From an uncultured Planctomycetota bacterium (GTDB taxonomy: Bacteria; Planctomycetota; DG-23; CAZBND01), in contig CAZBND010000025.1 in the NCBI GenBank assembly GCA_964493415.1, forward strand, positions 14,785-44,067: a stretch of 29,283 bases of DNA, written 5' to 3'. Within the stretch, counting starts at the first letter, position 1. Every line of letters begins with the position of its first letter. A program made the translations under genes and the position numbers. This document shows positions 186 through 19,774 of this stretch, one piece after another. The notes under the pieces were generated by a model that saw nothing but the letters and a program-made list of their open reading frames with translations, had not been told where the DNA came from and did not search any database.

Positions 186-240
186 CGTGTGCGGCTTAGA
201 GGTAGAAGGTTCGGATATCCAATAGCCTGTGAGGGAGAAA

Positions 241-1311
241 ATGACTAAGAGCAAGGAGCCGGAGGAGAAGGAGCGCGCGTCCCGAAGTATGTTCGATCCC
301 AATTACGTGCCGCCGCCTGAGCCGCCGCGAAAGCATCGCGGTATGTGGTGGAAAGTGGCGGTCGTGCTGGCGCTGCTGCTGACGGTTTCGGTCGTTATCC
401 TGAAGAAGCATCATCGTGAGCCTGCGACCGCGCTATCCGCTTCGCAGGAGACACAGGCGGGGATGGGCGCTACGCCGGATCCGACCTTCTCTCCCGAAGA
501 TGTTCTGGCCACGGTGGACGGAAAAGAGATCACCTTGCGCGAGCTGGAGGAAATCCTTCAAACGGTTCCAGCGGAGTATCGGGGGCAATTCCAGCGGCAG
601 AAGCACGAGTTCCTCGAGCAGATCATCGTGCGCGAAATGCTTCTGCAAGCGACGAATCATCTGGGCATCGCCGACACCGAAGCGTACAAGTCAGCCCTGC
701 GGGCGAACGCCGATGCTACTCCCATTCAGAGAGAAGACCTCCTCATCAGCATCCTTTTGCAGGAGCATGTGTTTCAACAAGTCGAGATCTCGGATGATGA
801 CCTGCGCGCCTTCTACGAGGAGGTGAAGGCTGACATTCCGGGGCAGCCCGCGTTCGAAAGTGTCAAGGACTTGCTCCTGCCGTCCTTAAGGCAGCAGAAA
901 GCGTACGAGGCCATGGAAGGATACATCGCCGAGCTCGGGGCAAAGGCTGTCGTCACTCGGAACGAGCAGTGGATCGCGGTCCAGAGGAAAGTCGCGGCTC
1001 AGAATCCGCTCGACAGCGTCTTGGGCAAAGGCATGCCCGTCCTGGCCGACTTCGGGCGAGGCACCTGCATCCCGTGCAAGATGATGCAGCCCATCCTCGA
1101 CAAGCTCGCAGTGGACTTATCCGGCCAGGTGCACGTCCTTATCCTCGACACCAGCGACTATCCCTCTCTGTCCAGGAAGCACGGGGTTCGGCTGATCCCG
1201 ACGCAGATATTCTTCGACGGTTCGGGCAAGGAGCAGTATCGGCACGAGGGTTTCATGTCTGAGGATGACATTCGCCGTAAGCTTCGAAGCCTCGGCATGG
1301 TTAGTGACTGA
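241..1311 (+). CDS. Membrane-anchored periplasmic thioredoxin-fold protein with a SurA-N-like chaperone domain (TlpA/ResA-like C-terminal domain, CxxC = CIPC)
   Basis: A Lys/Glu-rich N-terminal tail is followed by one TM helix (WWKVAVVLALLLTVSVVIL). Next comes a SurA_N-like segment (VATVDGKEITLRELEE...). The C-terminal thioredoxin-like domain carries GRGTCIPCKMM...LIPTQIFFDGSGKE. An RBS GAGGGAG precedes ATG 241; the track's start at 229 is a GTG within the RBS. Confidence 0.75.
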   Translation: MTKSKEPEEKERASRSMFDPNYVPPPEPPRKHRGMWWKVAVVLALLLTVSVVILKKHHREPATALSASQETQAGMGATPDPTFSPEDVLATVDGKEITLRELEEILQTVPAEYRGQFQRQKHEFLEQIIVREMLLQATNHLGIADTEAYKSALRANADATPIQREDLLISILLQEHVFQQVEISDDDLRAFYEEVKADIPGQPAFESVKDLLLPSLRQQKAYEAMEGYIAELGAKAVVTRNEQWIAVQRKVAAQNPLDSVLGKGMPVLADFGRGTCIPCKMMQPILDKLAVDLSGQVHVLILDTSDYPSLSRKHGVRLIPTQIFFDGSGKEQYRHEGFMSEDDIRRKLRSLGMVSD

Positions 1312-1332
1312 GCGCAGGAAAGGAATCGCGCC

Positions 1333-2031
1333 ATGCAGCAACTCTTCACGGCCCTGACGCGCGCCATCGAAGGTTCTCCGGGGGTAGCCCTGAGCGCGGC
1401 CTTCGCCTGGGGGATACTGAGCATCCTCCTGAGCCCGTGCCACCTTGCGAGTATCCCTCTGATCGTCGGGTTCATCGACGGCCAGGGAAGGATGTCCAAT
1501 CGTCGGGCATTCCTGATCTCGGTTCTATTCGCTACGGGCATCCTGATCACCATAGGCTTGGTCGGTGCGGTGACCGCTGCGGCCGGACGCATGATGGGTG
1601 ACGTGGGCAGGTACGGGAACTATCTCGTCGCGGTGATATTCTTCGCTGTGGGGCTCCATCTCCTGGGAGTGATTCCCATGCCGTGGTCCGGCCCTGGTCA
1701 GGTGCGCGTGAGAGGGAAGGGGACAGTGGGAGCGTTCATCTTGGGCCTGGTCTTCGGCATCGCCCTTGGTCCGTGCACCTTCGCGTACATGGCTCCCATG
1801 CTTGGGGTCACGTTCAGGTTGGCGGACACGAATGCGCTATACGGGATTGCCCTCCTTGCTATCTACGGGGTCGGGCACTGTTCCGTTATCGTATTTGCCG
1901 GCACTTCCGCCGAGGCGGTCCAGCATTACCTGAACTGGAACGAGCGTTCGAGGGGGGCGGTAGTCCTGAAGAAAATCTGCGGCGTTCTGGTACTCCTTGG
2001 CGGGGTGTATCTCGTGTACGCCGCGCCGTAG
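1333..2031 (+). CDS. ccdA: CcdA/DsbD-family cytochrome c biogenesis and thiol-disulfide transmembrane electron-transfer protein
   Basis: It is a polytopic membrane protein with the two conserved Cys of the DsbD core (LLSPCHLASIPLIVGF and LGPCTFAYMAP). The RBS AGGAAAGGA lies 9 nt upstream. Position and spacing pair it with the upstream thioredoxin-fold protein. Confidence 0.8.
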   Translation: MQQLFTALTRAIEGSPGVALSAAFAWGILSILLSPCHLASIPLIVGFIDGQGRMSNRRAFLISVLFATGILITIGLVGAVTAAAGRMMGDVGRYGNYLVAVIFFAVGLHLLGVIPMPWSGPGQVRVRGKGTVGAFILGLVFGIALGPCTFAYMAPMLGVTFRLADTNALYGIALLAIYGVGHCSVIVFAGTSAEAVQHYLNWNERSRGAVVLKKICGVLVLLGGVYLVYAAP

Positions 2032-2178
2032 GCTCTGCGGCATGATCACGTCAAAAGGTCGGTGCACACTAGAAGCACGGCTCCTTATACCGCGAAGTGT
2101 ATCATATGAGAATAAGAGGCCCCCTCAGCATAACCAACGCGTTGGCTGACGAGAACGGGCTGCGAACTCTCTGCGCAC

Positions 2179-5100
2179 TCAGCGGGGGGAAGCCGCATGC
2201 TGGCGCGTGAAGAGGAGGTACAGGCAGGGCATCAGGAAGAGCGCCACGGCGATTTCCATGATCAGCCCGCCGATCGCGCCGACCGCCATCGGCTGGAGCA
2301 TGTCGCCCCCTTCCCCGAGGTTCAGCGCCAGCGGCAGGAAACCCATCATGGTTGTCAAGGTGGTCATCAAGCGCGGGCGAAGGCGGATCTTTGCGGCGTC
2401 CACCACGGCGTCGAAGGGGGAGAGGCCCTCGCGCACGCGAAGGTCGCCGGCAAACGTCAATAACAGCACGCCGTCGTTGACGCCGGCGGCCACCACGACC
2501 AGCACGCCGATGATGACCGTCGCCCCGAGCGGGAAGCCCATCGCGTAGAGAAGACAGACCACGCCGGTAAGACAGACGGGCACGCTGCCCAGGATCAAGG
2601 CGGGCAGCTTCACGCTGTTGAACTGGACCGTCAGGATGATGAATGAGAAGAAGAGCGCGAAGGCGAAAACGGCCAGCACCGTGTCCCTCATGTCGGACAT
2701 CATCTCTGCTCTACCGCCGAAGGTGAACTCGTACCCCGCCGGAACCTCCATCCCGGCGAGCACGCCCCGAAGACCGGCGACCGCTCCGGCAAGGTCTCCG
2801 TCGGTCATGTCCGCCTCGACGGTGACCTGTTTGACCTGGTCTTGGCGAATGATTTCCACCGGTCCCACGGCCGGCCGAACGCTTGCGATGTCGCGCACGC
2901 GAAGGGTCTCGCCCTGGGCGCAGGTCAAGGAAAGGTTCTCGACGTCTTGGCGGCTCGTTATCTTCGCCTCGGGCACAATGAGCCGGACGTCGTAATACTC
3001 CGACCCGTCGCGGTAGCGCGTGGGCACGGTTCCGGTGATAAGCGTGCGCAATGCGCTCGCCACGTCGGCTACGGAGACTCCCAGCTCGGCGGCCTTCGCC
3101 CGATCAACATGAACGTGGTACTCGGGCCGCGAAAGGTCCATCGAGATGTTGACGTTGGCGAAGCCGCCGGCCTCCTGCATTGCGTGCGCCGCGCGGCCCG
3201 CGAGATCGGAAAGCGTCTCTGTGTCTTGGCCGCGGATTTCCACCACGATGTCCGACGCGCCCATACCGTGGATGCCCTTGACGGGCATCTGCCTGGCCAT
3301 GGCCTTGATGCCTGGCAAGGGCACTTTGCCCACGATCTGACGCAGGCGCGCCACGTATTCGGCGGTGCTTACGTTGCGCTCGGCCTTGGGGACGAGCTGG
3401 AGGTCAAGTTCGCCCTCGTTGGCGACCTCGTAGGTGTAAAGCCCCTTGACTTGCCCGCCGGCCAAGGAAAAGACGCTCGCGATGAGCGGGTCGTCGGCGA
3501 GCTCTTGCTCGAGCTTTCGCAATGCCTGGTCGGTCTCGTGCACCGAACCGCCGGCGGGCAGTTTGACCTTCACCATGACCCGCCCGTCGTCCATCAGTGG
3601 CAGAAACTCGCCGCCCAGTCGGCCAAGCAGCATGAATCCTGCGCCAAGCGCCGCCATGAAAAGCAGCATGACGACCCACCGGGCGCGGAGGACCCTGCTC
3701 AGCGTCCACCCGTACGCGTCGGTCGCGCGCGCGAAGAGACGCTCGAAAGGCGTGGCTGTCCGAGTCTGCCGGCGACGTCGGAACAACGTGGCGGCGAGCA
3801 TCGGCGTTACGGTCACGGCGACGGTGAGGCTGATAACCACGATACCTGCGACGACCAGGATCAACTCGCGGAACAGGAGGCTCGTCAGGCCGGGCACGAT
3901 CAGGAACGGCACGAAGAGCGCCAGGAAGGACAGCGTCGCGGCGATGACGGCGGGGCCGACCTCGTCGGTCGCCGCCACAGCCTGGTCGGCCACGTCGTGG
4001 TCGGGATGCTCGTGGCGGAAGCGGGTGATGTTCTCCAGGACGACGATGGAGTTATCCAAAACCACGCCGATGGCAACTACCAGCCCGCCCAGGGAAAAGA
4101 TGTTGAGCGAGAAGCCGGCCACCTTCATAAGGCCGAAGTTGAGCACCATGGTCAGCGGCAGCGCCACGGCCATCACCAGCACCTGCCGAACGCTGCCAAG
4201 GAACAGGTAGACGACGACCACCAGCAGGGCCGCCGCCCCGAGGGCCGCGTTGCGCACCCCCGCCAGGGACTGGCGCACGTACTCCGCCTGGTTCTCCATG
4301 TAGTCCAGACGTAGCCCTTCGGGGAAGAACGCTTTCAGCTCGCCGAGCTTGGCGGCTACCGCGTCAGCCACCTCCACAGTGTTGGCCTCGGCCTCCTTCA
4401 GAACCGATATCTTGACGCAGTCTTCGCCGTTGAACCGGGTGATCACGCGGGCATCCTCATGTGAGTCGGTCACTTCCGCAATGTCGCGCAGGTAGACTTT
4501 GCTCTGCCCCTGGCGGGCTATCAGGACGGAACGGATGTCCTCCAGGGAAGTGAATTCGCCCGTCGTGCGGGCGATCACTTCCGTGCGCCCGACAGTGACG
4601 CGTCCGCCGGTCTGCTCGACGTTCTCCTGGCTCAGCCGGCTCAATACCATATCCATAGACAGGTTGTGTTTATCCAGGGCCGGTGGGTCGAGGAGGATGC
4701 GTATCTCCCGTTCCAGCCCGCCCACAATCTCCGTGCCGGCCACGCCTTTGACGGCCAAGATGCGGTCCTGGAGCCAGTTCTGCGCCCACTCACGCAGTTG
4801 GACCGGCCCAAGTCGTTCCGAACTGATCGCCACTTGCATGACCGGTAGCTGTGAGGGGTCGGCTTTGAACACGAAGGGAGGATCGATATCCTCGGGCAGG
4901 TCCTGCTCGGCGCGGGCGAGCGCCGCGAGCACGTCCTGGAACGCCGCGTCGACATCCGTTCCGTACTCGAAATGCACGTCCAGCGCGTAGATACCCTCGC
5001 GAGCCGAAGACTCCAGGTAGTCGAGGTTGTCCACTGTGGCCATCAGGCGCTCGACAGGATCGGCGACGTCCTTGTCGATCTCGTCGGGCGTGGCCCCCAG

Positions 5101-5253
5101 CCATTTGATCTGCACCTTGACGAGGGGATAGGTGATGTCCGGCAGGAAGTCCACCGGCAGACGCCACAGGCCGTACAGGCCCAACACGACCAGTGCAAGC
5201 ACGATGGCGCTTGTGGCCAACCGCCGTCCGACGGAATACCGCGTTATCCTCAT
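2179..5253 (-). CDS. RND efflux transporter permease subunit (AcrB/CzcA superfamily, 1024 aa)
   Basis: It has 12-TM architecture with two large periplasmic loops. The TM4 motif AIGVVLDNSIVVLENI resembles the HAE-type AIGxxVDDAIVxxEN. Its start overlaps the MFP stop by 4 nt. Substrate class cannot be determined from sequence. Confidence 0.92.
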   Translation of the reverse strand: MRITRYSVGRRLATSAIVLALVVLGLYGLWRLPVDFLPDITYPLVKVQIKWLGATPDEIDKDVADPVERLMATVDNLDYLESSAREGIYALDVHFEYGTDVDAAFQDVLAALARAEQDLPEDIDPPFVFKADPSQLPVMQVAISSERLGPVQLREWAQNWLQDRILAVKGVAGTEIVGGLEREIRILLDPPALDKHNLSMDMVLSRLSQENVEQTGGRVTVGRTEVIARTTGEFTSLEDIRSVLIARQGQSKVYLRDIAEVTDSHEDARVITRFNGEDCVKISVLKEAEANTVEVADAVAAKLGELKAFFPEGLRLDYMENQAEYVRQSLAGVRNAALGAAALLVVVVYLFLGSVRQVLVMAVALPLTMVLNFGLMKVAGFSLNIFSLGGLVVAIGVVLDNSIVVLENITRFRHEHPDHDVADQAVAATDEVGPAVIAATLSFLALFVPFLIVPGLTSLLFRELILVVAGIVVISLTVAVTVTPMLAATLFRRRRQTRTATPFERLFARATDAYGWTLSRVLRARWVVMLLFMAALGAGFMLLGRLGGEFLPLMDDGRVMVKVKLPAGGSVHETDQALRKLEQELADDPLIASVFSLAGGQVKGLYTYEVANEGELDLQLVPKAERNVSTAEYVARLRQIVGKVPLPGIKAMARQMPVKGIHGMGASDIVVEIRGQDTETLSDLAGRAAHAMQEAGGFANVNISMDLSRPEYHVHVDRAKAAELGVSVADVASALRTLITGTVPTRYRDGSEYYDVRLIVPEAKITSRQDVENLSLTCAQGETLRVRDIASVRPAVGPVEIIRQDQVKQVTVEADMTDGDLAGAVAGLRGVLAGMEVPAGYEFTFGGRAEMMSDMRDTVLAVFAFALFFSFIILTVQFNSVKLPALILGSVPVCLTGVVCLLYAMGFPLGATVIIGVLVVVAAGVNDGVLLLTFAGDLRVREGLSPFDAVVDAAKIRLRPRLMTTLTTMMGFLPLALNLGEGGDMLQPMAVGAIGGLIMEIAVALFLMPCLYLLFTRQHAASPR

Positions 5254-6629
5254 CGCTCGTCCTCCGCAGCCATGGGCCGGGCTGCGGCGGTGCCTTGGCG
5301 ACCTGGTTTCTCCGCGCCCTCGCCGGCGCCTGCGATTCTGACGGGCGCGCCGTCTGTCAAGCCCTCATTCCCCCTCACCACAACGTGTTCGCCGGGCGCT
5401 ATGCCTTGGCTCACCTGAACGCTCCGCTTTCCTTCGATGCCAAGCGTAACTTTGCGCCGCACCGCCTTCCCCGCCTCGACCACGAACGCAATCGTTTCCC
5501 CTTGCGCAGTCTCGATCACGGCTTCGGTGGGGATGAGCACGGCCTGGCGCGCCAATCCCAACTCCAGCGTCAGCCGCGCGAACTGGTGCGGCATGAGGTC
5601 AACGGGCGGAGTGAACTTCGCCTCCGCCGTGCGTGTTCGCATGACTGGATCGAGCTGGGGATAGACGCGCACGACCTGGGCTGGGAACGTCCGGCCCGGG
5701 AGGGCGTCCAACGTCGCCTCCAGCCGAAGCCCCGTTCGCACCGCTGCGGCGTAGACCTCGGGGACGGAGAACCGCACGACAAGCGATGCGGGCGCGTACA
5801 TCTCGATCAGGGGGCTTCGCGGCACGGCCAGGTCGCCGGGGCGCACGTGCACATGTGCAATTCTGCCATCGAATGGGGCCGCAATGACGCATTCGGCCAA
5901 ATGCGCATCGGCCAGGGCAAGCTTGGCCGATGCTTCCTTCACGGCGGCCTCCTGGACGGCAAGCTCCGTGGTGGTGGGCCCGGCCCTGAGCATGCGCAGC
6001 GCCTCCTCTGCGGCGGCCAGCTCCGCTTCGGTCACCTTCATCCGTTCGCGCGCTTGGTCGAAGCTCTGCTGCGAGGTGAACTCTTGTTTGATGAGTTCCG
6101 CCTGGCGCTGGTAGCTCTTGCGGGACTCTTCGACCGTCGCCCGCCACTTCGCCAAGTTCGCCTCAGCCTTCTCTATCTCCTCCGGGCGGGCACCGGCTTT
6201 CAGGTCGGCGAGTTTCGCTTCGGCCAGCATCAGCGCGGCCCGAGAGGCCTCAACCTCCGCCCGGTGCACCTCACGGTCGATCTCGACGAGCTTCTCCCCC
6301 GCCCGTACCTCGTCGCCTTCGCGCCACGGGCAATAGGTGATAGGGCCTTCCTTTGTGGCGGCGATGACCACGGCATTGGTCGCAACCACTTCGCCGGTCA
6401 GTTCCAAGGTCTGCGTCATGTCGCCGACGCGTGCCGCTTCCACCTCCACCAGCGGGGCCTTGGCCGCTTGGCCCGGGTTCTCCGCCTTCGCTTGGGGCGT
6501 TCTGCCGACGGCCAGCCAGGCTGCCGCCGCGCCTGCCAGGGCAATCACCGGCAGAAGCAACACAAGTTTTTTTCGCTTGCTCACGGTTTCCCACTCTCCT
6601 TCATGATCAGTATTGCGAGCGCTCGGCAA
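5250..6629 (-). CDS. RND efflux periplasmic adaptor subunit (membrane fusion protein, HlyD family)
   Basis: It has an N-terminal TM/signal segment, a long alpha-helical coiled-coil hairpin and beta-barrel/lipoyl-like segments (RVYPQLDPVMRT...). It is translationally coupled to the RND permease. Confidence 0.88.
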   Translation of the reverse strand: MPSARNTDHEGEWETVSKRKKLVLLLPVIALAGAAAAWLAVGRTPQAKAENPGQAAKAPLVEVEAARVGDMTQTLELTGEVVATNAVVIAATKEGPITYCPWREGDEVRAGEKLVEIDREVHRAEVEASRAALMLAEAKLADLKAGARPEEIEKAEANLAKWRATVEESRKSYQRQAELIKQEFTSQQSFDQARERMKVTEAELAAAEEALRMLRAGPTTTELAVQEAAVKEASAKLALADAHLAECVIAAPFDGRIAHVHVRPGDLAVPRSPLIEMYAPASLVVRFSVPEVYAAAVRTGLRLEATLDALPGRTFPAQVVRVYPQLDPVMRTRTAEAKFTPPVDLMPHQFARLTLELGLARQAVLIPTEAVIETAQGETIAFVVEAGKAVRRKVTLGIEGKRSVQVSQGIAPGEHVVVRGNEGLTDGAPVRIAGAGEGAEKPGRQGTAAARPMAAEDER

Positions 6630-8109
6630 GCGACAGCCCTACGGCCCGCTCGAACTGCGCTTTCGCCGTATACCAGTCCAGGCGAGACTGCACCAGCCGA
6701 CGCTCCGCCTCGGTCTGCGCGGTCTGGGCGTCGATGAGCCCGATGATCGAAACGACGCCGCTCTTGTATTCGCCCTCGGCCAGGCGGGCGCTTTCGCTCG
6801 CGCCGGCGGTGAGCTTGGCCGCCGCCTCCACGGCCTCGGCCGATTCGATGAGCCGCCAGTAGGAGGTCCACACTTCGAGTTCGACTCCCTCGAGGAGGTC
6901 GGCGTGGTCGGCCATCTCGCGGGCGAGGTCTGCTCGAGCGCGCTCGAGGCGATAACCTCGCTCGAACCCGTCAAACAGCGGATAGCTCAGTGACAGCCCC
7001 ACAGACCACTCGTCGCGGTCGGGAACGAAGTTCGTGTCCTTGGGACCGGCGCTCAAACCGGCGCTCAGGGTCGGCCAGTAGGCCGCCCGCGCGGCGGCGA
7101 CCTCGGCTCGGTTCGCCTCGATGCGGGCCAGGGCGGCCCGCAACTCCGGGCGCTGCCGCGCCGCTTCGTCGAGCAATTCCTCTATGCGCGGCAGCTCCTC
7201 CTTTTCCGTGTCGGCGGGCAATTCGGCGATCTCGAATCCGGTGTGTACGGGCAGTCCCATCCCGCGAGCGAGACGGCCGCGCGCGGTCTGGACGCCGTTG
7301 CGGGCCTGCACCAGGAGCAGCTCCGCCTCAGCGCGTTGGGTTTCCGCCCTCAGAACGTCCGCACGGGTCACCACGCCCGTTGTGTGCCGCGCCCTCGCTA
7401 GGTCGACATGGTATTGGGTTCGCTTCACTGTCTCCTCAGCGACTGTGAGGGACCACTGGGCGGCGAGGAGCTCGTGGTAGGACTCCTCGACCGAGAGTGC
7501 GACATCCTGCAGGGTTGCGTTGTGGCGAAAGTCCGCTTCCATGAGAGCGGCCTCGGCGCCCGCCACCCGCGCCCGGCGCGCGCCGCCATCGAAGAGCAAA
7601 TAGCTCACGTCAATGCCGGCGGCGTAGGAGTTGCGCGGATCATTCTCCTTGTCGCTGTCCAGCGAGACCGACTTCCCTCGTGCGGTTTCGGCTCGAAGGC
7701 CCGCCGAAGGGAGATAGGCGGCGCGCTCTTCGCCCACACGCGCGCCCGCCGAACGCGCTGTTTGCCAGGAACTACGCGTCCGCGGGTTGCGCTCCAGCGC
7801 CGTCCGGATGCAATCGGCCAGGGTGAGCCTGCCGTCCTCTCTCGTTGCGCTCAATACAGGTTGAGACAGCCTCTCCGGCCCCACGGCCGGAGCGCTCTCC
7901 ACCGTCGGTGACGCATCGTCGGATGAGTAGTAAGCTGACGGCGTGACAGGAATGCGGGCTTTGGCGTTCCATGGGTCAACGCCCGCGCAACCGGAGATTG
8001 CGATGACGGCGAGGCCGGCGATGCCGACGGAATAAATTTTCGACACAATTCTTCCCACTCGATTTTCCTCAAGGGAAGGGCCGCCAATCCCCGCGATTGG
8101 CGGCCACAC
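6607..8109 (-). CDS. Efflux outer-membrane factor lipoprotein (TolC/NodT family)
   Basis: It has the two-repeat TolC-like helical architecture. A lipoprotein signal with lipobox AISGC is present. The true start is probably GTG near 8058, giving MGRIVSKIYSVGIAGLAVIAISGC with RBS GAGGA 7 nt upstream, rather than the upstream ATG at 8109. It overlaps the MFP gene by 23 nt. Confidence 0.88.
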   Translation of the reverse strand: MWPPIAGIGGPSLEENRVGRIVSKIYSVGIAGLAVIAISGCAGVDPWNAKARIPVTPSAYYSSDDASPTVESAPAVGPERLSQPVLSATREDGRLTLADCIRTALERNPRTRSSWQTARSAGARVGEERAAYLPSAGLRAETARGKSVSLDSDKENDPRNSYAAGIDVSYLLFDGGARRARVAGAEAALMEADFRHNATLQDVALSVEESYHELLAAQWSLTVAEETVKRTQYHVDLARARHTTGVVTRADVLRAETQRAEAELLLVQARNGVQTARGRLARGMGLPVHTGFEIAELPADTEKEELPRIEELLDEAARQRPELRAALARIEANRAEVAAARAAYWPTLSAGLSAGPKDTNFVPDRDEWSVGLSLSYPLFDGFERGYRLERARADLAREMADHADLLEGVELEVWTSYWRLIESAEAVEAAAKLTAGASESARLAEGEYKSGVVSIIGLIDAQTAQTEAERRLVQSRLDWYTAKAQFERAVGLSLAERSQY

Positions 8110-8144
8110 TCGACTTACGGACAGACCGCGCAGTCCCTAGGCGG

Positions 8145-8444
8145 TCAATGGCACGGCCCGGCAAAGCTGTGACTGCAACCGTGTTGCATTCCGTGGCGGC
8201 CATGGCCGCCGTCATGGCTTCCACACTGTCTGCGCACGTCACAGACACCGTCGCCGTCCGCATCCTCGAACCCCGGGCAGTCCGCGGTATGAGCGACGCC
8301 CTGTTGGGCGACATCATCTATACTGACTGCCTGTTCATCCGGGGCCGGCAGGTTCGCAGCCCGGCTTTGGGCAATCGCATACGCCCCGAGGGCTGCCAGC
8401 GCCACGACTCCGATCACTACCAGCAAGAGCATCGATTTCCTCAC
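8145..8444 (-). CDS. Small secreted His/Cys/Asp-rich protein (putative periplasmic metal-binding protein or metallochaperone)
   Basis: GTG start with a perfect RBS AAGGAGG 5 nt upstream. It has a Sec-type signal peptide (MRKSMLLLVVIGVVALAALGAYAIAQS). The mature part of about 73 aa contains 5 Cys and about 8 His, with motifs DCPGFEDADGDGVCD and HDGGHGRHGMQHGCSH. It sits between the LTXXQ protein and the efflux OMF gene. Confidence 0.6.
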   Translation of the reverse strand: MRKSMLLLVVIGVVALAALGAYAIAQSRAANLPAPDEQAVSIDDVAQQGVAHTADCPGFEDADGDGVCDVRRQCGSHDGGHGRHGMQHGCSHSFAGPCH

Positions 8445-8544
8445 TGTCGCCTCCTTATGTTTTGTTCACGCCGATCTTGGTAACGTCTGGTAACACGTAG
8501 GCGGGCGGACTCTTGCGCTTTCACCTCCTTACATAGGGGTTCTT

Positions 8545-9090
8545 TTAACCGCGCGTCGGAAGAGGGTGGCGGGCTGCTTCGCCGTCTCCCGCCTCGCGGG
8601 CGGCTTGCGCAGCCCCTCGGCCCGTCATGGGCCCGTGTCCGGCGCATCCGGACTGCTGTCGCATCATCCGGAAAAGTTGTTCCTGCTGCTCGTGTGTCAG
8701 AAAGTTCTTTTCGCTCAGGAGGTGGTCGATGACGAGTTGCTGCATTTGGCGCTGGCGGGCCACGATCTCCTCCTGCTTGGCACGGATTGCGTCGCGGTCG
8801 GGCTCCGGCGCGGCGATCAAATCTATCATCTCCGCGCGGGCGCAGTTGATTTCGGCTGAGACGGCCTGAGCGGATTTCTGGAACTCGGCGAGCCGAGGCT
8901 CGATCTCGCGCCACTGCGCCTCGGTCGCGCCGAGCCGGCGATGGAGCGGACACCAGATGCCTTCCTCGTGCCTTGGCCCGTGACGGCCTGGTAGATGCGT
9001 GGGCAGTGCGCGCGCGGCCCAGACGGCCACGAAGGCGAGGTTGAGCGCAACGGACAGGAAGACCAGCAGCGGCATTATCTTCTTCCGCAT
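8545..9090 (-). CDS. LTXXQ-motif periplasmic protein (Spy/CpxP/ZraP family; 'periplasmic heavy metal sensor'-like)
   Basis: It has a signal peptide (MRKKIMPLLVFLSVALNLAFVAVWAARA), helical repeats with LTHEQQEQLFRMM (LTxxQ) and a His-rich N-terminal region. Its start lies 2 nt after the anti-sigma stop. Confidence 0.72.
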   Translation of the reverse strand: MRKKIMPLLVFLSVALNLAFVAVWAARALPTHLPGRHGPRHEEGIWCPLHRRLGATEAQWREIEPRLAEFQKSAQAVSAEINCARAEMIDLIAAPEPDRDAIRAKQEEIVARQRQMQQLVIDHLLSEKNFLTHEQQEQLFRMMRQQSGCAGHGPMTGRGAAQAAREAGDGEAARHPLPTRG

Positions 9091-9092
9091 GG

Positions 9093-9581
9093 CTATTGCC
9101 CCCCTCCGTTATTCGCCGATGCGAGCGTCAGGTAGGCGTCGGCGAGTGAACCGGCCGGCGCATCGGAGAGGTAATCGAAGCCGTATACTGCATCCGGATC
9201 GGCTTGCGCGAGGTCGGGCGGGGTCGCCGAGCCGCCGACAAAGTCCAGCCCCATCATCGAGCCGAGACCGAGGCCCAGGATAACCATCGCCGCCGCTGCG
9301 AGACGCATGGCCGGAGAGAACGACTTCCAGAACGGCACGACGACACGCCGCTGCTCGCGGCGTCGAGCGGCGCGGATGACCGCGCGTTCGGCGAAGCCTG
9401 CCGGAATGTCGGGCGGTTGGGCTAGTTGCGACAGCGCCGCTGCGGTGGCGCGGAGTCGTTCGAGCGCTTCGCGGCATGAGTCGCACGCCCCGACATGGCG
9501 CTCAATATCGCCTCGCTGCTCCGAGGACAGTTCTCCGTCCAGGTAGCGGTTCAGCATGGATTGAATGTGTCTGCAACGCAT
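9093..9581 (-). CDS. Anti-sigma factor, zinc-finger (ZAS / zf-HC2) type, single TM
   Basis: The N-terminus MRCRHIQSMLNRYLDGELSSEQRGDIERHVGACDSCREALERL carries the H-x3-C-x2-C motif typical of ZAS anti-sigma factors. A TM helix (AAAAMVILGLGLGSMMGL) and a periplasmic C-terminal tail follow. It lies directly downstream of the ECF sigma factor. Confidence 0.8.
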   Translation of the reverse strand: MRCRHIQSMLNRYLDGELSSEQRGDIERHVGACDSCREALERLRATAAALSQLAQPPDIPAGFAERAVIRAARRREQRRVVVPFWKSFSPAMRLAAAAMVILGLGLGSMMGLDFVGGSATPPDLAQADPDAVYGFDYLSDAPAGSLADAYLTLASANNGGGQ

Positions 9582-9641
9582 CGCAAGTCATCCTTTCACC
9601 TGAATAAACGGACTCGAAGCGAAAAACCCCCGCGGAAAATC

Positions 9642-10202
9642 TCAGGCATTTCCCGGTTCCTTGAGCCGACCTTGGAGCGCGTCCCTGCCGCGGGCAAGGA
9701 GCCGCTCGACGGATTTCACCGACGTGCCGATGGCGTCGGCGATCTCCTGGTAACTCAAATTCTCGTAGTGGCGGAGGACTAGGGCGGCGCGCTGGCGGGG
9801 AGGGAGAGCGTCCAAGGCGCGGCGGACGGCCTCGGCGGACTCACGCCGGGCGAGCGCCTCCGGAGGGCCTGGATCAGCGGATGGCGACGCGGGCAGGCGA
9901 TCCATGTAACGAGGACGTTTCTTCTCCAGGCGATCCAGGCATAGACGGGTGACGACGCGGTAGAGATACGTTCGGAAGGACGCCGTGGGGCGGTAGCGCG
10001 AGGCCGCGTCTAGGATTTTCAGAAAGGCGTCCTGGGCCGCGTCCTCGGCCTCCGCCGGGTCGCCGAGCAGCCGCCAGGCGGCGTTCCAGGCCGACCGCTG
10101 ATGACGGCGCACGAGTTCGCCGAAGGCATCCAGGTTGCCGCCGGCGGCGGCCTGCATGAGTTCCTCATCGGTCGGCATGGGCCGCGCCTTTCGTGCGTCC
10201 AA
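9642..10202 (-). CDS. RNA polymerase ECF (sigma-70 family group 4) sigma factor
   Basis: Sigma-70 region 2 (AQDAFLKILDAASRYRP...FRTYLYRVVTRLCLD) and region 4 HTH (LSYQEIADAIGTSVKSVERLLARGR) are present. Confidence 0.9.
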   Translation of the reverse strand: MDARKARPMPTDEELMQAAAGGNLDAFGELVRRHQRSAWNAAWRLLGDPAEAEDAAQDAFLKILDAASRYRPTASFRTYLYRVVTRLCLDRLEKKRPRYMDRLPASPSADPGPPEALARRESAEAVRRALDALPPRQRAALVLRHYENLSYQEIADAIGTSVKSVERLLARGRDALQGRLKEPGNA

Positions 10203-11286
10203 CGATGAGGTAATGGACGGCCAAACCCGCCGCGAAGCCCACCGCCATGTTCACCGCCACTGAGCCGGCTACGGTGACAGCAACCGGAATAAGGCCCCTG
10301 TCCAGCCGCAGGTCCCGCGCGAACTTGAACAGCTCGATGCCGACGAGCAGCATCATCGCGCCCACGATGGCGCGGGGGAAGGCCAGGAAGAGCGACGCGA
10401 TGCCGCCGGCGAGGAAGAGACCCAAAGCAATCTCGATCACTCCCTCGATGAGGTTCGTGCCGCCCGTGCGCGCCCCGAAGTAGTACTGCCCCGCCAGCCC
10501 GCCCGCGCCGTGGCATAGCGGCATGCCGCCGAAGAAGGGGAGGATCACGTTCATGACGCCCATGTTCACCGACAGTTGGCGCTCGGTGATGCGGCGGTTC
10601 GGCCAGTACTGCGAGACGAGCGCTGACGTGGCGATGACGGCGTTCGTGGCGGTCAAAGGTATCTGCGCCAGGCCGCCGTCGCGCAGGACCGGCCAGACCA
10701 GGCGAAGGTCGAACGTCGTCAGCGGCGGGAGCGCGAAGGACAGCCCGGCCACGGCCCCAAGTTCTTCGCGCCATGCCATGACTGCGATGCCCAGGACCAC
10801 CAGCACGATCGCCGCGGGAGCGTAGCGGTTTTGGCGCAGAAGCAGCACGATGGCGACGGAGACGATGCCCAGCAGCCACCACCCGCTCACCATCTTGATG
10901 CCCTCGACGGCCAGCAGCGCGCCGAGCGAGAGCTGAATGCCGCGCACGACGGCCCTGGGCGTCCATCGGGCGACGTGCGCCATCGCGCCGGTGGTGCCCA
11001 TCAGCAGCCACACGACGCCCATGACGAAGGCCGAGGTGTAGACCTTTTCCGGCGTCCACGCCTGGGCGATGGCCATAATCGCGAGTGCCTTCATCGGCTC
11101 GATGGGCATGGGCAGGCGATACACGAGGGCGGTGACGATGTTCGCGAGTCCCATCATGACGAGAAGCCCGGCGGGGTTCATCTTGCAGACGGTCATGTAG
11201 CCGATGGCCAGCGGCAGGAGCGTTCCGAAGTCGCCCATGGAACCGGCCAACTCGCGCAGGTTGAACACGAACGATCCGATCTTCAT
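10165..11286 (-). CDS. Polytopic permease of the MOT1/SulP-like family (putative sulfate or molybdate transporter)
   Basis: The N-terminus LRELAGSMGDFGTLLPLAIGYM resembles the MOT1 signature (ELSGSLGDLGT..IPI). It has about 10-12 TM helices and overlaps the ECF sigma start by 38 nt. The family assignment is from memory of motifs and is not verified. Confidence 0.55.
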   Translation of the reverse strand: MKIGSFVFNLRELAGSMGDFGTLLPLAIGYMTVCKMNPAGLLVMMGLANIVTALVYRLPMPIEPMKALAIMAIAQAWTPEKVYTSAFVMGVVWLLMGTTGAMAHVARWTPRAVVRGIQLSLGALLAVEGIKMVSGWWLLGIVSVAIVLLLRQNRYAPAAIVLVVLGIAVMAWREELGAVAGLSFALPPLTTFDLRLVWPVLRDGGLAQIPLTATNAVIATSALVSQYWPNRRITERQLSVNMGVMNVILPFFGGMPLCHGAGGLAGQYYFGARTGGTNLIEGVIEIALGLFLAGGIASLFLAFPRAIVGAMMLLVGIELFKFARDLRLDRGLIPVAVTVAGSVAVNMAVGFAAGLAVHYLIVGRTKGAAHADR

Positions 11287-11292
11287 TCGCTG

Positions 11293-12063
11293 TCACAGTC
11301 CCTTCGCCCGCCCGTGACGATGGAAGCGGCAGGCACTCCACATGAATCCGGCGGCAAAGACGACCAGGATGGCAGGGCTCAGCGACAACGGGAAATATCT
11401 CGGCTGGCCGAAGCCGGCGCGGATGAGATCACCGGCGTAGGACAGGGGTGAGACGGGGGCCACCCACCGGGCCCAGGCGGGCATCTGAGGGATGGGCAGG
11501 AAGACCCCGCTGACAAACAGCAGCGGCAGGCGCACCAGGTTGGACAGGAGCATGATGTTGGAGGGGCTACTCGCCGGCGGTGCGGCCAGCAGCACCCCTA
11601 GCGACGCGAAACTCAGCGCGCCGAGGATGATGCCAGCCACAAGCAGTCCCACGTTCATGACCGCCGCGTCCGTCAGCGCCAAGCCCAGGAACACCGGGAT
11701 GACGGACAGGCACGCACCGAAGAGCAGCCCGCTGATCACGTCGCCGCCGATGATTGCCTCTGGACAAACCGGCGTCGCGATAAGCCGCTCGTAGGTTCGG
11801 GCGGCCCGCTCCCACGGCGTCACCAGCGGGCCGACTGCACTGGCGGTAAACCATAACGCCATGGCGACCATCCCCGGCACAATGCTCTCTGCCGCGACGG
11901 GTCGGCCCATCTTGAATGCCAGGAAGAAGAACACCGGGAACAGTACGCCGAAGATCAACACTGGTGGCTTCAGATAGTACAGGAGGGCGTTTTTCTTGAC
12001 GATTACCAGCGCCCCGTGGAACTGGTGCTCCCAGGCATGAACGGTCTCCGTGCGGTCGGTCAT
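11293..12063 (-). CDS. ABC-2 type transporter permease
   Basis: The true start ATG at about 12063 overlaps the ATPase stop as ATGA (MTDRTETVHAWEHQFHGALVIVKKNALLYYLKPP...), giving a 6-TM ABC-2 permease. The long N-terminal Arg-rich extension in the track (to 12723) lies in a different frame over the ATPase gene and is spurious. Confidence 0.8.
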   Translation of the reverse strand: MTDRTETVHAWEHQFHGALVIVKKNALLYYLKPPVLIFGVLFPVFFFLAFKMGRPVAAESIVPGMVAMALWFTASAVGPLVTPWERAARTYERLIATPVCPEAIIGGDVISGLLFGACLSVIPVFLGLALTDAAVMNVGLLVAGIILGALSFASLGVLLAAPPASSPSNIMLLSNLVRLPLLFVSGVFLPIPQMPAWARWVAPVSPLSYAGDLIRAGFGQPRYFPLSLSPAILVVFAAGFMWSACRFHRHGRAKGL

Positions 12064-13004
12064 TTCGACACCTCCTGCGTCCTGTCCGCGGTGAGATGGA
12101 GGAAAACCTCTTCCAGGCTGGGCTTGCGCGTGCAGAGGTGAGCAATCTCCCATCCCCGGCTGTCGCCAAGGCGAACCACCGCTGCCGCAACGCGTCCAGG
12201 CGTCTGGGTGTACAGGCGATGGCGTCCGGCCTCCTCGCTTACCTGCGCAACGCCCGGGATAGCCTCGAGTTCGGCAGCGCCGGCAGTCCCTCCCTGGAAG
12301 GCCACCTCGGTGTACTGTCTCGAGCGCACTATGCTGCGAACCCCATCGGGCGTGTCGACGGCGGCTATGTGCCCCTTGTTGATGATCGCGACGCGGGTGC
12401 ACATCTCTTCCGCCTCGTCCATGTTGTGCGTGGTCAGGAAAACGGTCAGCCCGGTCCGGTTCAACTCGCTCACGATCTGCCGAATCAACCGGGCGCTTTG
12501 GACGTCGAGGCCGCTTGTGGGTTCGTCCAGGAAGAGGATCTCCGGGCGCGTGACCAGCGCGGCGCAGAGCATCACCCGCTGCCGGAGCCCTTTGGAGAGC
12601 ACGCGCGCCTTCTGCCGCTTGCGTTCTCCAAGGCCCAGCGCATCGAGGAGCCGTTCGCCCTCGCGGGCGCGTTCCTTCCGCGGCACGCCGTGTAGCTCGG
12701 CCATGAGCATCACGTTCTGCCACACGGTCAGGTCGAGGTAGACGTTCGCCTCTTCCGGCACCACGGCGAGGTGGGCGCGAGACAGGAGCGCCTCCTTTCG
12801 GATGTCATGTCCCTGGATGGAGGCCGTTCCCTCGGTTGGCTCCAGCACGCCGGTGAGCATCCGAACCGTGGTCGTCTTCCCCGCCGCGTTCGGGCCCAAA
12901 AAGCCGAAGATTTCGCCCTCCTCAACGCAGAAGCTCACGCGGTCTACCGCTACCAGATCGCCGTAGCGCCGGGTGAGCCCGTTGACTTCAATGGCGTTGG
13001 GCAC
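12060..13004 (-). CDS. ABC transporter ATP-binding protein
   Basis: Walker A GPNAAGKTT, ABC signature LSKGLRQRV, Walker B LFLDEPTSGLD and an H-loop are present. The likely start is GTG near 13004 (MPNAIEVNGLTRRYG) with RBS AAGGGAGGGG 6 nt upstream. The track's 13058 start is a TTG. With the GTG start, overlap with the upstream methyltransferase is about 17 nt. Confidence 0.88.
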   Translation of the reverse strand: MPNAIEVNGLTRRYGDLVAVDRVSFCVEEGEIFGFLGPNAAGKTTTVRMLTGVLEPTEGTASIQGHDIRKEALLSRAHLAVVPEEANVYLDLTVWQNVMLMAELHGVPRKERAREGERLLDALGLGERKRQKARVLSKGLRQRVMLCAALVTRPEILFLDEPTSGLDVQSARLIRQIVSELNRTGLTVFLTTHNMDEAEEMCTRVAIINKGHIAAVDTPDGVRSIVRSRQYTEVAFQGGTAGAAELEAIPGVAQVSEEAGRHRLYTQTPGRVAAAVVRLGDSRGWEIAHLCTRKPSLEEVFLHLTADRTQEVSK

Positions 13005-13632
13005 TCTCGACCCCTCCCTTCTCGAAAAGTAGCCAGAACCCTGGGGGAACGGGCTCAAGCAGCGACTCGCCGAGCCCTGCAGCCCGCGCTTGAAGCTCTA
13101 GCCATTCCGGCCTGCGCTTGCTATACCAGTCATCCAGAGCTTTCTCACTCCGAGCCTTCAGCTCTTGATTCCGGCGACGAAAGAACTCCTGGCGCGCGGA
13201 TTCGGGATACGAGCTGCCAAAGCCCCCGCCGACCAAGGCGCGACCACCGGGGCCGAGGATCCGGTAGACCTCCCGGAGGCCCTGTGCCGGCTCGTCCCAG
13301 AAAAAGACCGAGCCGCGACTGACTACGAGGTTCACCGAGCAATCGGCGAAGGGCATACTCTCCGCGCGGCCGGCGACAGCTAACGCACGCGTTCCCAGGC
13401 CGGAGTGCTTCGCGCTTTCAAGAGCTTTGCGTAAGGCGTTGGCGCGTGGGTCCACAAGAAGGATAGTGCTGCGTGACGCTCTTGCCAGGGCGAGTCCCAG
13501 TCCGCCGCTGCCGCAACCCAGGTCGACCCAAACGCCCTCCTCCGGTCGGCAGTAGCTGAGGACGTCCTCTGCAACGGCGACGAACCAATCCGGCAACCGC
13601 CTGGCAGATTTCGGCCTGACGTCACGTTCCAC
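12988..13632 (-). CDS. Class I SAM-dependent methyltransferase
   Basis: Motif I VDLGCGSGGLGLALA is present, then an acidic post-I residue (LLVDP) and motif II/III region (VNLVVSRGSVFFWDEPAQGLREVYRILGPGGRALV). GTG start. The substrate is unknown. Confidence 0.78.
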   Translation of the reverse strand: MERDVRPKSARRLPDWFVAVAEDVLSYCRPEEGVWVDLGCGSGGLGLALARASRSTILLVDPRANALRKALESAKHSGLGTRALAVAGRAESMPFADCSVNLVVSRGSVFFWDEPAQGLREVYRILGPGGRALVGGGFGSSYPESARQEFFRRRNQELKARSEKALDDWYSKRRPEWLELQARAAGLGESLLEPVPPGFWLLFEKGGVESAQRH

Positions 13633-13719
13633 GGAGCACTTCCGTGGGTTCTATAGTCATTCGCTCTCGGCCTTTTTCACGCAGGGATGTTCCTTCACCT
13701 CGCCGTGGCACTTTCTGAT

Positions 13720-13794
13720 CTACTCGGGAGAGCAATCCTGCGGCTTGCCCTTCAGCTCGCTAGGCTTCAGACACCCCTTCTTTGCGTCAGCCAT
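13720..13794 (-). CDS. Candidate small ORF (24 aa, MADAKKGCLKPSELKGKPQDCSPE) between the ArsR-like regulator and the methyltransferase/ABC operon
   Basis: ATG is preceded by AAGGAGAGG at about 9 nt spacing. The peptide is Lys-rich with two Cys. It was not in the six-frame track because it is too short. It is speculative and may be non-coding. Confidence 0.2.
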   Translation of the reverse strand: MADAKKGCLKPSELKGKPQDCSPE

Positions 13795-13857: not shown

Positions 13858-14163
13858 CTACCCGGATCCTTCGCCGAGTAGTTCGTCCGCCAGCTTTCTC
13901 CATCCGGCCAGCGTTTTGGGGTTCATGCGGTAGTGGACGTAGTACCCGCGCTTGTCGGGGATGACGAGGTCTGCCGCGCGCAGCACTCGCAGGTGCTGCG
14001 AGACCGCCGCGGGGGTGACCCCCAGTCGCGCCGCGAGCGCGTTGACGCACATCGGCTTGTTCCGGATCAGTTGGACTATCCGGAGGCGTGTCGGCGCTGA
14101 AAGGATCTTGAAGATTCGCGCTGCCTTTTCGGGATCGGTCACTTGCGCGCCTTGATTAAGCAT
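13858..14163 (-). CDS. ArsR/SmtB-family transcriptional regulator (no CVC metalloid site)
   Basis: Winged HTH: APTRLRIVQLIRNKPMCVNALAARLGVTPAAVSQHLRVLRAADLV. It is divergent from the ars operon and heads the long minus-strand gene array. A 10-bp palindrome GCATATATGC overlaps its start codon. Confidence 0.85.
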   Translation of the reverse strand: MLNQGAQVTDPEKAARIFKILSAPTRLRIVQLIRNKPMCVNALAARLGVTPAAVSQHLRVLRAADLVIPDKRGYYVHYRMNPKTLAGWRKLADELLGEGSG

Positions 14164-14270
14164 ATATGCAAATACTACAGCGGTCCTTGCCGCCCTGTCA
14201 ATTCTTCGGCTCGAAATTCTGCGGTCAGGCGCGGGGGAGAAACAGGACAGGACGCTGCTTTAGGTCGGGC

Positions 14271-15119: not shown

Positions 15120-15126
15120 ATTTCAT

Positions 15127-18550: not shown

Positions 18551-18576
18551 CAGTAAGTGCCCGTAAAAGGTAGACT

Positions 18577-19772: not shown

Positions 19773-19774
19773 CC

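Follow-up and report, generated by a model that had tools for sequence, protein, structure and literature searches.

The 29,283-nt stretch analysed here (positions 14,785 to 44,067 of contig CAZBND010000025.1, assembly GCA_964493415.1, from an uncultured Planctomycetota bacterium; hereafter the window) carries a co-directional gene array in which an extracytoplasmic function (ECF) sigma factor, a membrane-spanning anti-sigma factor and a periplasmic sensor protein precede a tripartite efflux pump. The array probably encodes an envelope signalling and efflux module of the Cnr type, which would act on a toxic metal or metalloid and would be wired in two tiers. The arrangement itself is real, strongly conserved and far beyond chance. 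An earlier sequence-only reading of seven of the genes is partly supported: it was right in outline, wrong on the promoter and incomplete in extent. Coordinates of the array and its features refer to the minus strand.

Genes of the array, the sensor and the pump

The open reading frame (ORF) listing and profile searches (Pfam, NCBIfam) found all seven genes, co-directional on the minus strand and at the positions assigned to them before. The ECF sigma gene (9642..10178) encodes 178 aa from its ATG, the TTG at 10202 giving only the longest ORF. After 60 nt it is followed by the gene of a zinc-finger anti-sigma factor of the ZAS type (zinc-binding anti-sigma; single-pass, 9093..9581, 162 aa), and after a further 2 nt by that of the sensor (8545..9090, 181 aa). 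A small secreted Cys/His-rich protein (8145..8444, 99 aa) is encoded 100 nt downstream of the sensor gene and 86 nt upstream of the pump genes. The latter encode an outer-membrane factor (OMF, 6607..8058, 483 aa), a periplasmic adaptor of the membrane fusion protein type (MFP, 5250..6584, 444 aa) and a resistance-nodulation-division (RND) permease of an unclassified clade (2179..5253). The pump genes had been said to have overlapping boundaries; this is true of the MFP and RND genes (ATGA), whereas the OMF and MFP genes are 22 nt apart at their likely starts.

The edge of the array had been placed at 10202, which is too short. The co-directional run reaches approximately 14142, as identified from gene calls on near-identical contigs and from Pfam, and the full array has 13 genes headed by an ArsR-type gene. 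Identical gene order was found in six near-identical metagenome contigs. The idea of a self-contained regulatory and efflux module holds in so far as the genes form a co-transcribed unit, with junctions of -4 to +20 nt in most relatives, but the unit is embedded in the longer, ArsR-headed array.

With the sensor protein, 54 species-level loci were fetched from metagenome-assembled genomes (MAGs), one genome per species being scanned (loci are cited by L numbers). They belong mostly to Planctomycetota (Pirellulales, Phycisphaerae, Brocadiia), Lentisphaerota, Kiritimatiellia and Desulfobacterota, and the carriers of the module are uncultured sediment bacteria. According to the BLAST annotation, nearly all loci combine the sigma factor, anti-sigma factor, sensor, OMF and MFP with an inner-membrane pump, and in most of them the order is sigma, anti-sigma, sensor, (small protein), OMF, MFP, pump; sigma, anti-sigma, sensor and tripartite pump follow one another in about 50 MAG species. 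The inner-membrane component is either an RND ortholog (63-85% identity) or a MacB-type ABC transporter made up of one ATPase and two FtsX/MacB_PCD permeases.

The sensor matches PF13801 (Metal_resist) with 58.6 bits (cutoff 29.2). It had been described as an LTXXQ protein of the Spy/CpxP/ZraP type. A literal LTHEQ is present, but the score against the LTXXQ family PF07813 (18.9 bits) is below the cutoff of 24.3; the type, by contrast, was borne out by PF13801, Foldseek and hhalign, which place the protein in the CnrX/ZraP/CpxP/Spy fold family. Alignments of 25 and then of 58 orthologs showed that the N-terminal hydrophobic helix is conserved and that S13 and N17 within it are invariant. Such invariant residues are unusual for a cleaved signal peptide and suggest helix-helix packing in the membrane; the sensor appears to be membrane-anchored by this segment, cleavage being possible. 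Potential ligands cluster in the motif W-C47-P-L-H50-R-R-L, where H50 is at least 90% conserved, in a helix Cys found at position 78 in most orthologs and at 83 in the window, and in the C-terminal motif S-G-C149-A-G-H152-G-P-M-M-G. These Cys, His and Met residues are candidate metal ligands, softer than those of CnrX, and as such they would point to a thiophilic metal or metalloid as inducer.

The AlphaFold2 model of the sensor (pLDDT 80) consists of a transmembrane (TM) helix (residues 2-28) and a helical hairpin. The top Foldseek matches in the PDB were CpxP, CnrX (many entries), NccX, ZraP and Spy, with target-normalised TM-scores of 0.6-0.8 and E-values of 0.02-0.1; for CnrX and NccX the target-normalised TM-score was ~0.7 and the rmsd 2.3-3.3 Å, with E-values of only 0.02-0.1. 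E. coli ZraP aligned over the hairpin core with an hhalign E-value of 2.5e-4, and its C-terminal Gly/Cys/His/Met tail resembles that of the sensor. When the sensor profile was compared with PDB sequences no significant match was obtained, the fold search alone being successful. The sensor family comprises 187 matches, whose source names include 'periplasmic heavy metal sensor' (Victivallales and Planctomycetes MAGs).

Among the pump components, the OMF is a lipoprotein of the TolC family (OEP 227 bits, lipobox AISGC), and the MFP matches TIGR01730 (RND_mfp) with 205.8 bits as well as HlyD_D23. The permease belongs to the RND superfamily: its residues 4-1015 cover positions 2-1020 of the 1021-position ACR_tran model (PF00873) with 816.5 bits, and the closest solved structures are MdtB, CmeB and AcrB. 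Its scores fall below every curated NCBIfam subfamily cutoff (RND_permease_2, 701 bits, cutoff 1250; TIGR00914 CusA/CzcA, 442, cutoff 701; TIGR00915, 495, cutoff 940).

TM helix 4 (TM4) of the permease reads AIGVVLDNSIVVLEN and had been called HAE-like rather than HME-like (hydrophobe/amphiphile and heavy-metal efflux, respectively). Overall similarity is indeed nearer to HAE-1, but TM4 has D-N and the proton relay is non-canonical. This emerged from an alignment with E. coli AcrB, CusA and 18 module orthologs. D400 and N401 occupy the positions of AcrB D407 and D408, N926 that of AcrB K940 and CusA E939, and an Arg that of CusA K984; AcrB R971 and T978 are kept as R957 and T964. D400, N401, N926, R957 and T964 are invariant in the 18 module RNDs. 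With D/N/N/R in place of AcrB D407, D408 and K940, the full HAE-1 relay (D407, D408, K940, R971, T978) is not present. None of the best-matching solved RNDs has D-N in TM4. The HME-RND signatures are absent as well: TM4 does not follow the HME1/2 signature, reportedly given by Nies in 2003 as DFGX3DGAX3VEN, the CusA-type relay (D405/E939/K984) is missing, and Lys, Glu and Ala stand at the positions of the CusA residues Met573, Met623 and Met672. From the sequence the substrate of the RND cannot be read.

These properties of sensor and pump bear on the alternative that the system serves general envelope stress or xenobiotic efflux, the PF13801 protein being a Spy/CpxP-like chaperone or stress reporter, the sigma factor responding to misfolded envelope proteins or membrane-active organics and the pump exporting organic compounds. 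The top fold matches include CpxP and Spy, the permease is closest overall to the HAE-1 pumps MdtB, CmeB and AcrB, it has neither the CusA Met triad nor the HME motif, and it is interchangeable with MacB-type pumps. However, the Phe-rich drug pocket of AcrB is not conserved in the RND; of the distal-pocket Phe residues F610 alone is kept, the others being replaced by polar or charged residues. The sensor, for its part, has conserved Cys/His/Met motifs, a ZraP-like Gly/Cys/His/Met tail and a CnrX-like N-terminal anchor, and the module is recurrently linked to ArsR, to ChrA or MOT1, and to Cys/His-rich secreted proteins. We consider this alternative unlikely.

The anti-sigma factor and the motif upstream of its gene

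The sigma factor has the profile of an ECF (group 4) protein, as previously proposed (Sigma70_r2, 70.8 bits; Sigma70_r4_2, 65.6 bits; TIGR02937, 127 bits, cutoff 42.9). The solved structures closest to it are M. tuberculosis SigE and B. subtilis SigW; CnrH scores 52 bits. The zinc-finger nature of the anti-sigma factor was also upheld (zf-HC2, 41.7 bits, cutoff 22.2): the protein has the motif H29-x3-C33-x2-C36 together with C3, all four residues being at least 90% conserved in 54 orthologs, and a single hydrophobic segment at residues ~91-112. Its periplasmic C-terminal part contains the conserved motif Y..D.L..AP.GSLA..YL.L. Across loci the junction of the anti-sigma and sensor genes is nearly always 2 nt, and this near-invariance is consistent with a stoichiometric complex of the two proteins, in which the sensor would contact the periplasmic tail of the anti-sigma factor.

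The spacer between the sigma and anti-sigma genes is the only long conserved junction of the array and measures 55-61 nt across phyla. In the window it contains the bipartite promoter-like motif GCGGGGGTTTTTCGCTTCGAGTCCGTTTAT (9604..9633), a candidate target of the ECF sigma factor, which scores 33.2 bits with a position weight matrix (PWM). The consensus is G[C/A]GGGGG[A/T]TT-N10-[T/C]CGTTT[A/G]. When gaps of 14-20 nt were allowed, GGGG...CGTT was found in 51 of the 54 spacers, and in 48 of these 51 the gap was exactly 16 nt. The CGTTxx end lies 19-26 nt 5′ of the anti-sigma ATG. When 735 kb was scanned with the PWM on both strands, the motif appeared nearly once per locus, 48-53 nt 5′ of the anti-sigma ATG; in the 29-kb window 9633-9604 was the sole site, the runner-up scoring 10.8 bits.

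Insertions of 0.8-2.9 kb part the sigma gene from the anti-sigma gene in L020, L028, L031, L032 and L058. Despite them, the motif stays beside the anti-sigma gene in L028, L032 and L058; in L020 and L031 a copy is found at the sigma end. Second copies occur 53 nt 5′ of the sigma gene in L011 and 5′ of the pump genes in L050. In 43 of 44 loci no motif-like site was found within 320 nt 5′ of the sigma gene. Fixed spacing between the halves, a spacer of variable sequence, a -10 half of the CGT type, an unchanging distance to the Shine-Dalgarno (SD) sequence and ATG and co-inheritance with one sigma clade are properties of an ECF promoter, and the sigma factor of the module is the likely candidate for binding the motif.

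The promoter had been expected elsewhere, as AAC-N16/17-CGT upstream of 10202 and of 8109. This pattern and related ones, searched on the minus strand between 8000 and 14400, matched in coding regions only. The nearest AAC-N16/17-CGT-like match is at 10577, inside the MOT1-family gene described below, and there is none 5′ of the sigma, small-protein or OMF genes. A search for bipartite k-mers in the 480 nt following the sensor gene in 58 loci returned only GC-rich coding noise. An overlap of the sensor and OMF genes, seen in most relatives, leaves no room for a promoter 3′ of the sensor gene. Sigma-dependent promoters in front of both the regulatory and the pump operon, as in Cnr, are thus not a feature of the window, which has a single motif.

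The motif might instead be the site of another regulator or an RNA-level element, with the array read through from the ArsR-controlled or other upstream promoters and the sigma factor controlling genes elsewhere. Such a view could cite the -35-like half (GGGGGWTT), which does not contain the AAC typical of ECF promoters, and the partial overlap of the motif with the 3′ end of the sigma gene in some loci. We think it quite improbable, because the element has two halves at a fixed distance, separated by a sequence that varies, and a -10 half of the CGT type, because its distance to the SD sequence and ATG is constant, and because it is strictly co-inherited with the sigma clade across phyla; the second copies in L011 and L050 also speak for a promoter. 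An RNA element was considered for the spacer and rejected, since RNAalifold found no conserved, covarying base pairs in 38 spacers and Rfam gave no match.

Sensing of thiol oxidation or zinc by the ZAS domain had been suggested as the input and is still compatible with the conserved C-H-C-C set. In its full form, with the cytoplasmic domain as the real sensor, oxidised or stripped of its zinc by thiol oxidants or thiol-reactive metalloids as in RsrA-SigR, and the periplasmic protein a mere member of the regulon, this explanation has in its favour the conservation of C3, H29, C33 and C36, the first zinc ligand, which is a Cys in RsrA too, the thioredoxin and DsbD_TM genes that adjoin the pump in the window, and an adjacent ars operon that would fit thiol-reactive arsenite; we nevertheless judge it very unlikely, since the anti-sigma factor spans the membrane, has a conserved tail in the periplasm and in nearly all loci shows translational coupling to the sensor (2-nt gap), which makes the ZAS domain less likely as primary input, since many zf-HC2 anti-sigma factors, ChrR for example, use zinc only structurally, and since the thioredoxin/DsbD pair is not a conserved companion of the module.

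The ArsR-headed genes and the proposed circuit

The first gene of the array encodes an ArsR/SmtB-family regulator of 94 aa (13858..14142, from a gene call; HTH_5 56.6 bits) with a single Cys (PMCVNAL). In at least 17 loci an ArsR ortholog stands first in the array. Upstream of the gene, at 14172..14201, is a sigma-70-like promoter, TTGACA-18-TAGTAT, with 10 of 12 consensus matches; the layout TTGAC-N17-TAnTAT is also found 5′ of orthologous ArsR genes at other loci. Reading of the sequence located the perfect palindrome GCATATATGC (14160..14169) right after the -10 hexamer, and inverted repeats (TTAGT/ACTAA, TTAGC/GCTAA) are present at the matching position in relatives. The palindrome is a candidate ArsR/SmtB operator and may be bound by the ArsR-family repressor.

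The regulator gene is followed by a small Cys-rich ORF (13657..13794) with the sequence C..KP..L.GKP.DC.PE[Q]IR.CHGE...HPC, which is interrupted by an in-frame TAG at 13722-13720. In relatives the Gln codon (CAG) is intact; the TAG is present in the window lineage in four of four independent assemblies. The motif of the relatives, C.KP..L.GKP.DC.PEQ[IV]R.CHGD...HPC, occurs in one or two copies. Such ORFs were found in L001-L003, L008, L011, L013, L015, L026, L034, L042, L044, L053 and L055, and in L053 and L055 (Desulfobacterota) the domain is fused to the C-terminus of ArsR. No Pfam model matches the ORF.

Four more genes lead to the sigma gene: a SAM-dependent methyltransferase (12988..13632; Methyltransf_11, 61.9 bits), a DrrA-like ABC transporter ATPase (12060..13004; gene call; ABC_tran, 107 bits, and DrrA1-3_C), an ABC-2 type permease (11293..12063; gene call; ABC2_membrane, 76.8 bits) and a MOT1-family, SulP-related oxyanion transporter (10165..11286; MFS_MOT1, 178 bits). 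The cassette ArsR, (methyltransferase), ABC, ABC-2, (MOT1 or ChrA) stands 5′ of the sigma gene in many loci, ChrA taking the MOT1 position in L008, L012 and L014. The MOT1 stop codon (10167-10165) lies 14 nt inside the sigma ORF, and this overlap leaves no intergenic region in front of the sigma gene. In many lineages the start of the sigma gene overlaps the gene upstream.

Taken with the motif in the sigma/anti-sigma spacer, this organization suggests how the proposed Cnr-type module may be controlled. In a first tier, the ArsR/SmtB repressor, acting through the sigma-70-type promoter and the operator palindrome, would control the 13-gene array. The transcript would yield the methyltransferase, the ABC-2 exporter, the MOT1-family transporter and, via the overlapping reading frame, the sigma factor, which would be supplied from the ArsR-headed operon, its gene apparently having no promoter of its own. 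In a second tier, the single-pass ZAS-type anti-sigma factor would hold the sigma factor at the membrane, with its periplasmic tail and TM helix in contact with the membrane-anchored CnrX/ZraP-like sensor. The inducer, like the pump substrate, would be a metal or metalloid. Freed sigma factor would initiate at the G5-N15-CGTT promoter in the 60-nt spacer right after its own gene, and the sigma-dependent transcript would encode the anti-sigma factor, the sensor, the small protein and then the OMF-MFP-RND pump that clears the periplasm; a stem-loop between the small gene and the OMF gene probably lowers read-through to the pump. Because this transcript starts at the anti-sigma and sensor genes and excludes the sigma gene, induction would be self-limiting, with negative feedback and without positive autoregulation.

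A further form of this circuit, which we put forward tentatively and regard as rather unlikely, is a two-key switch that would be previously undescribed and widespread in uncultured Planctomycetota, Lentisphaerota, Kiritimatiellia and Desulfobacterota. ArsR and the Cys-rich CHGD..HPC partner would license synthesis of the sigma factor, the CnrX-like sensor with its Cys/His/Met residues would license its release, the sole target promoter would lie between the sigma and anti-sigma genes, so that feedback would be purely negative, and one sensor cassette would drive either a non-canonical RND (D/N/N/R relay) or a MacB pump. The use of one sensor cassette with either pump would imply periplasmic capture of a single soft-metal or metalloid species (for example As(III), Sb(III), Cu(I) or Cd).

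Several observations weigh against the Cnr-type, two-tier interpretation. The RND lacks the HME signatures and the CusA Met triad, and MacB-type pumps, which relatives use in its place, are best known for organic substrates and peptides. The Foldseek E-values of the sensor are weak (0.02-0.1), as expected for helical hairpins. With no AAC in its -35-like half, the spacer motif could be bound by a different factor. A terminator-like hairpin with a long T-run extends across the arsR stop codon (13858-13881, minus strand), so that the genes 3′ of arsR may be attenuated or use another promoter. The first tier may even be constitutive in the window, since ArsR, with only one Cys, shows no recognisable metal site and the TAG breaks its partner ORF. 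Finally, every relative comes from a MAG.

Related systems, the small protein and the genomic surroundings

The closest parallel is the nickel/cobalt resistance system CnrYXH-CnrCBA(T) of Cupriavidus metallidurans (ECF291; NccYXH is alike). In both systems a single-pass anti-sigma factor whose periplasmic tail is short holds an ECF sigma factor, the periplasmic sensor is a separate protein of the hooked-hairpin fold with an N-terminal anchor, and the output is an adjacent OMF-MFP-RND pump. In CnrX, binding of Ni or Co by His42, His46, Glu63, His119 and Met123 shifts the contact with the tail and TM helix of CnrY and frees CnrH (PMC6851896). The Cnr system combines a housekeeping-type (RpoD-dependent) baseline promoter with sigma-dependent promoters (PMC6851896, PMC9045368); the window has a candidate for each kind, the sigma-70-like promoter and the spacer motif. 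The differences are considerable. The anti-sigma factor belongs here to class I (ZAS, zf-HC2), whereas CnrY is of class II; the gene order is sigma, anti-sigma, sensor, pump instead of cnrYXH-CBA; and the candidate sigma-dependent motif lies after the sigma gene, which would leave the sigma factor without autoregulation. The conserved sensor residues, as seen in the alignments, are C47, H50, the helix Cys, C149, H152 and Met instead of His42/His46/Glu63/His119/Met123. In addition, the RND is not of the HME2 type and the sigma factor is distant from CnrH (52 bits).

By gene context alone, the locus matches exactly the group ECF281 of the ECF classification 2.0, which is defined by a zinc-finger anti-sigma factor at +1 and a PF13801 heavy-metal resistance protein at +2 (PMC7826278); here zf-HC2 is at +1 and PF13801 at +2. 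On the best reading the module corresponds to this predicted group. ECF281 is a bioinformatic prediction for which the main text of the classification paper names no characterised member, and that main text mentions for it neither an efflux pump, nor an ArsR-headed cassette, nor an RND/MacB swap, nor a spacer promoter (PMC7826278). Compared with the same main text, the following appear to be new: the candidate promoter position that leaves the sigma factor outside its own regulon, the ArsR-headed cassette, the interchange of RND and MacB, the Cys/His/Met motifs of the sensor and the D/N/N/R clade of RND permeases.

Other systems share single parts. ZraP, CpxP and Spy of Enterobacteria have the same fold family and an LTXXQ-type motif, and ZraP has a similar Gly/Cys/His/Met tail, but these are soluble proteins that serve as chaperones or as modulators of two-component systems (ZraSR, CpxAR), whereas the sensor is apparently membrane-anchored and paired with an ECF anti-sigma factor. 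The copper/silver pump CusCFBA with its periplasmic metallochaperone CusF is likewise a tripartite RND operon with a small secreted, metal-binding-looking protein encoded beside the OMF gene. CusF and the small protein are unrelated, the latter being Cys/His-rich, optional and encoded upstream of the OMF gene, and the M573/M623/M672 site of CusA is not found in the RND. RsrA-SigR and other ZAS systems share H-x3-C-x2-C and an N-terminal Cys as fourth ligand; here the anti-sigma factor differs in that it spans the membrane, has a conserved tail in the periplasm and is paired there with a dedicated partner. In Fur-FecIR, as is proposed here, a cytoplasmic metalloregulator governs how the sigma gene is transcribed and a trans-envelope signal determines the activity of the sigma factor; in the module the regulator would be of the ArsR family, the sensor is in the inner membrane and is not a TonB-dependent receptor, and the output is efflux and not uptake. 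This two-tier likeness rests on the gene overlap and on promoter- and operator-like sequences.

For a large clade found only in uncultured organisms the locus provides a 30-bp candidate promoter, candidate sensor ligands and a conserved anti-sigma tail. It has an unusual circuit layout, in which the sigma factor would be outside its own regulon, together with its relatives it combines one sensor cassette with pumps of two energy-coupling classes, and its permease reveals a clade of RNDs whose proton relay is non-canonical. Should the inducer be a metalloid or soft metal, the sigma/promoter pair could become a compact orthogonal biosensor part and also a metagenomic marker of metal stress in anoxic sediments. 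To our knowledge, CnrYXH and NccYXH are the only cases of ECF-controlled metal efflux that have been analysed experimentally in detail, and we know of no study of ECF281-type trios, common as these are in genomes.

The small protein had been noted as a tiny, secreted, metal-binding-looking product, which agrees with our analysis. Its gene starts with GTG, 5 nt after AAGGAGG; the signal peptide ends in AYA, and the mature part, with 5 Cys and 7 His, contains the motif C-P-G-F-x-D-x-D-G-D-G-V-C-D and ends in (F)AGPCH. An exhaustive HMMER search of 1.84 billion representatives gave 38 matches, many of them repeats in giant proteins, and a word-index search for homologs returned only the protein itself; an exact look-up of the GTG-start form gave no record. 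Its genuine relatives are likewise short and secreted, carry C-P-G-F/Y-x-D-x-D-G-D-G-x-C-D in 1-5 copies and have Gly/His/Cys tails; neither they nor the small protein itself are covered by a Pfam or NCBIfam model. In L007 and L008 the corresponding slot holds an ortholog with the (F)AGPCH ending. Since a Cys-rich secreted protein fills the slot between the sensor and OMF genes in only ~11 of ~57 lineages, it is best viewed as an optional accessory, possibly a periplasmic metal buffer or chaperone comparable to CusF.

In some Planctomycetota another gene occupies the slot (L012, 2620-2832; L013, 10929-11369; L016, 5165-5626). Its product has a His-rich N-terminus (GHMHHA) and one TM helix, and the full-length proteins of L013 and L016 have a cytoplasmic region with weak, sub-threshold similarity to helix-turn-helix domains of the MarR/IclR type.

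The stem-loop in the gap between the small gene and the OMF gene is GC-rich, GGCCGCCAAT-N7-ATTGGCGGCC (8079..8105). The 89-nt intergenic region has a minimum free energy of -42.4 kcal/mol (z = -2.9). In L007, L008 and L010 the pairing is kept and the sequence changed, and a strong hairpin after the small gene is also found in other lineages; the stem-loop of the window is without a U-tract. We read it as a stabiliser or attenuator that may set the stoichiometry of regulators to pump. The 100-nt spacer between the sensor and small genes has no predicted structure (z = -0.4) and is lineage-specific, measuring 19-31 nt in L007 and L008. At 8479-8497 (minus strand) it contains CGTGTTACC-AGA-CGTTACC, a direct repeat whose period is 10 nt.

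Sequence identities suggest a mosaic history. The sigma factor, anti-sigma factor, sensor and OMF of the window are closest to loci with MacB-type pumps (sigma factor 76-77% in L008/L011, OMF 70% in L009), whereas its MFP and RND are closest to Brocadiia loci (RND 84-85% in L034/L041, where the sigma factor is only 55-56% identical). This discordance indicates that the supra-operon is a mosaic of exchangeable cassettes. The array (2001-13000) has 63-68.5% GC and a skew of ~0, the region from 16 to 27 kb 58-61% GC and a skew of ~+0.2, and the last 2 kb of the window 53-55% GC. The composition step and the mosaic identities together suggest horizontal acquisition of the array. L012 has two complete sigma, anti-sigma and sensor sets in tandem, each with its own spacer motif; the first leads to OMF-MFP-MacB and the second to pump genes ordered RND-MFP-OMF, of which the RND is distant (26% identity).

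The array is flanked by other genes on both sides. A convergent pair located 3′ of the RND gene (229-2031, plus strand) encodes a thioredoxin-domain protein, whose N-terminal part matches SurA_N_3 weakly and below threshold, and a membrane protein of the DsbD_TM/CcdA-like kind that gives a weak hit to the ArsG family. The pair was rejected as part of the module, because it is not conserved with it, except partly in L044. On the other side, a divergent arsenic-resistance operon (14329-17138, plus strand) encodes a second ArsR, an ArsC of the low-molecular-weight phosphatase type, an Acr3-type (SBF) permease and an ArsM-like methyltransferase; its promoter, TTGACA-16-TACAAT, is at 14271-14298. 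This arsenic/efflux island is adjoined by a sulfate-assimilation cluster (18400-22600, plus strand) encoding an Rrf2 regulator, a 3′-phosphoadenosine 5′-phosphosulfate (PAPS) reductase, an ATP sulfurylase and a cysteine-synthase-like enzyme dependent on pyridoxal phosphate (PLP).

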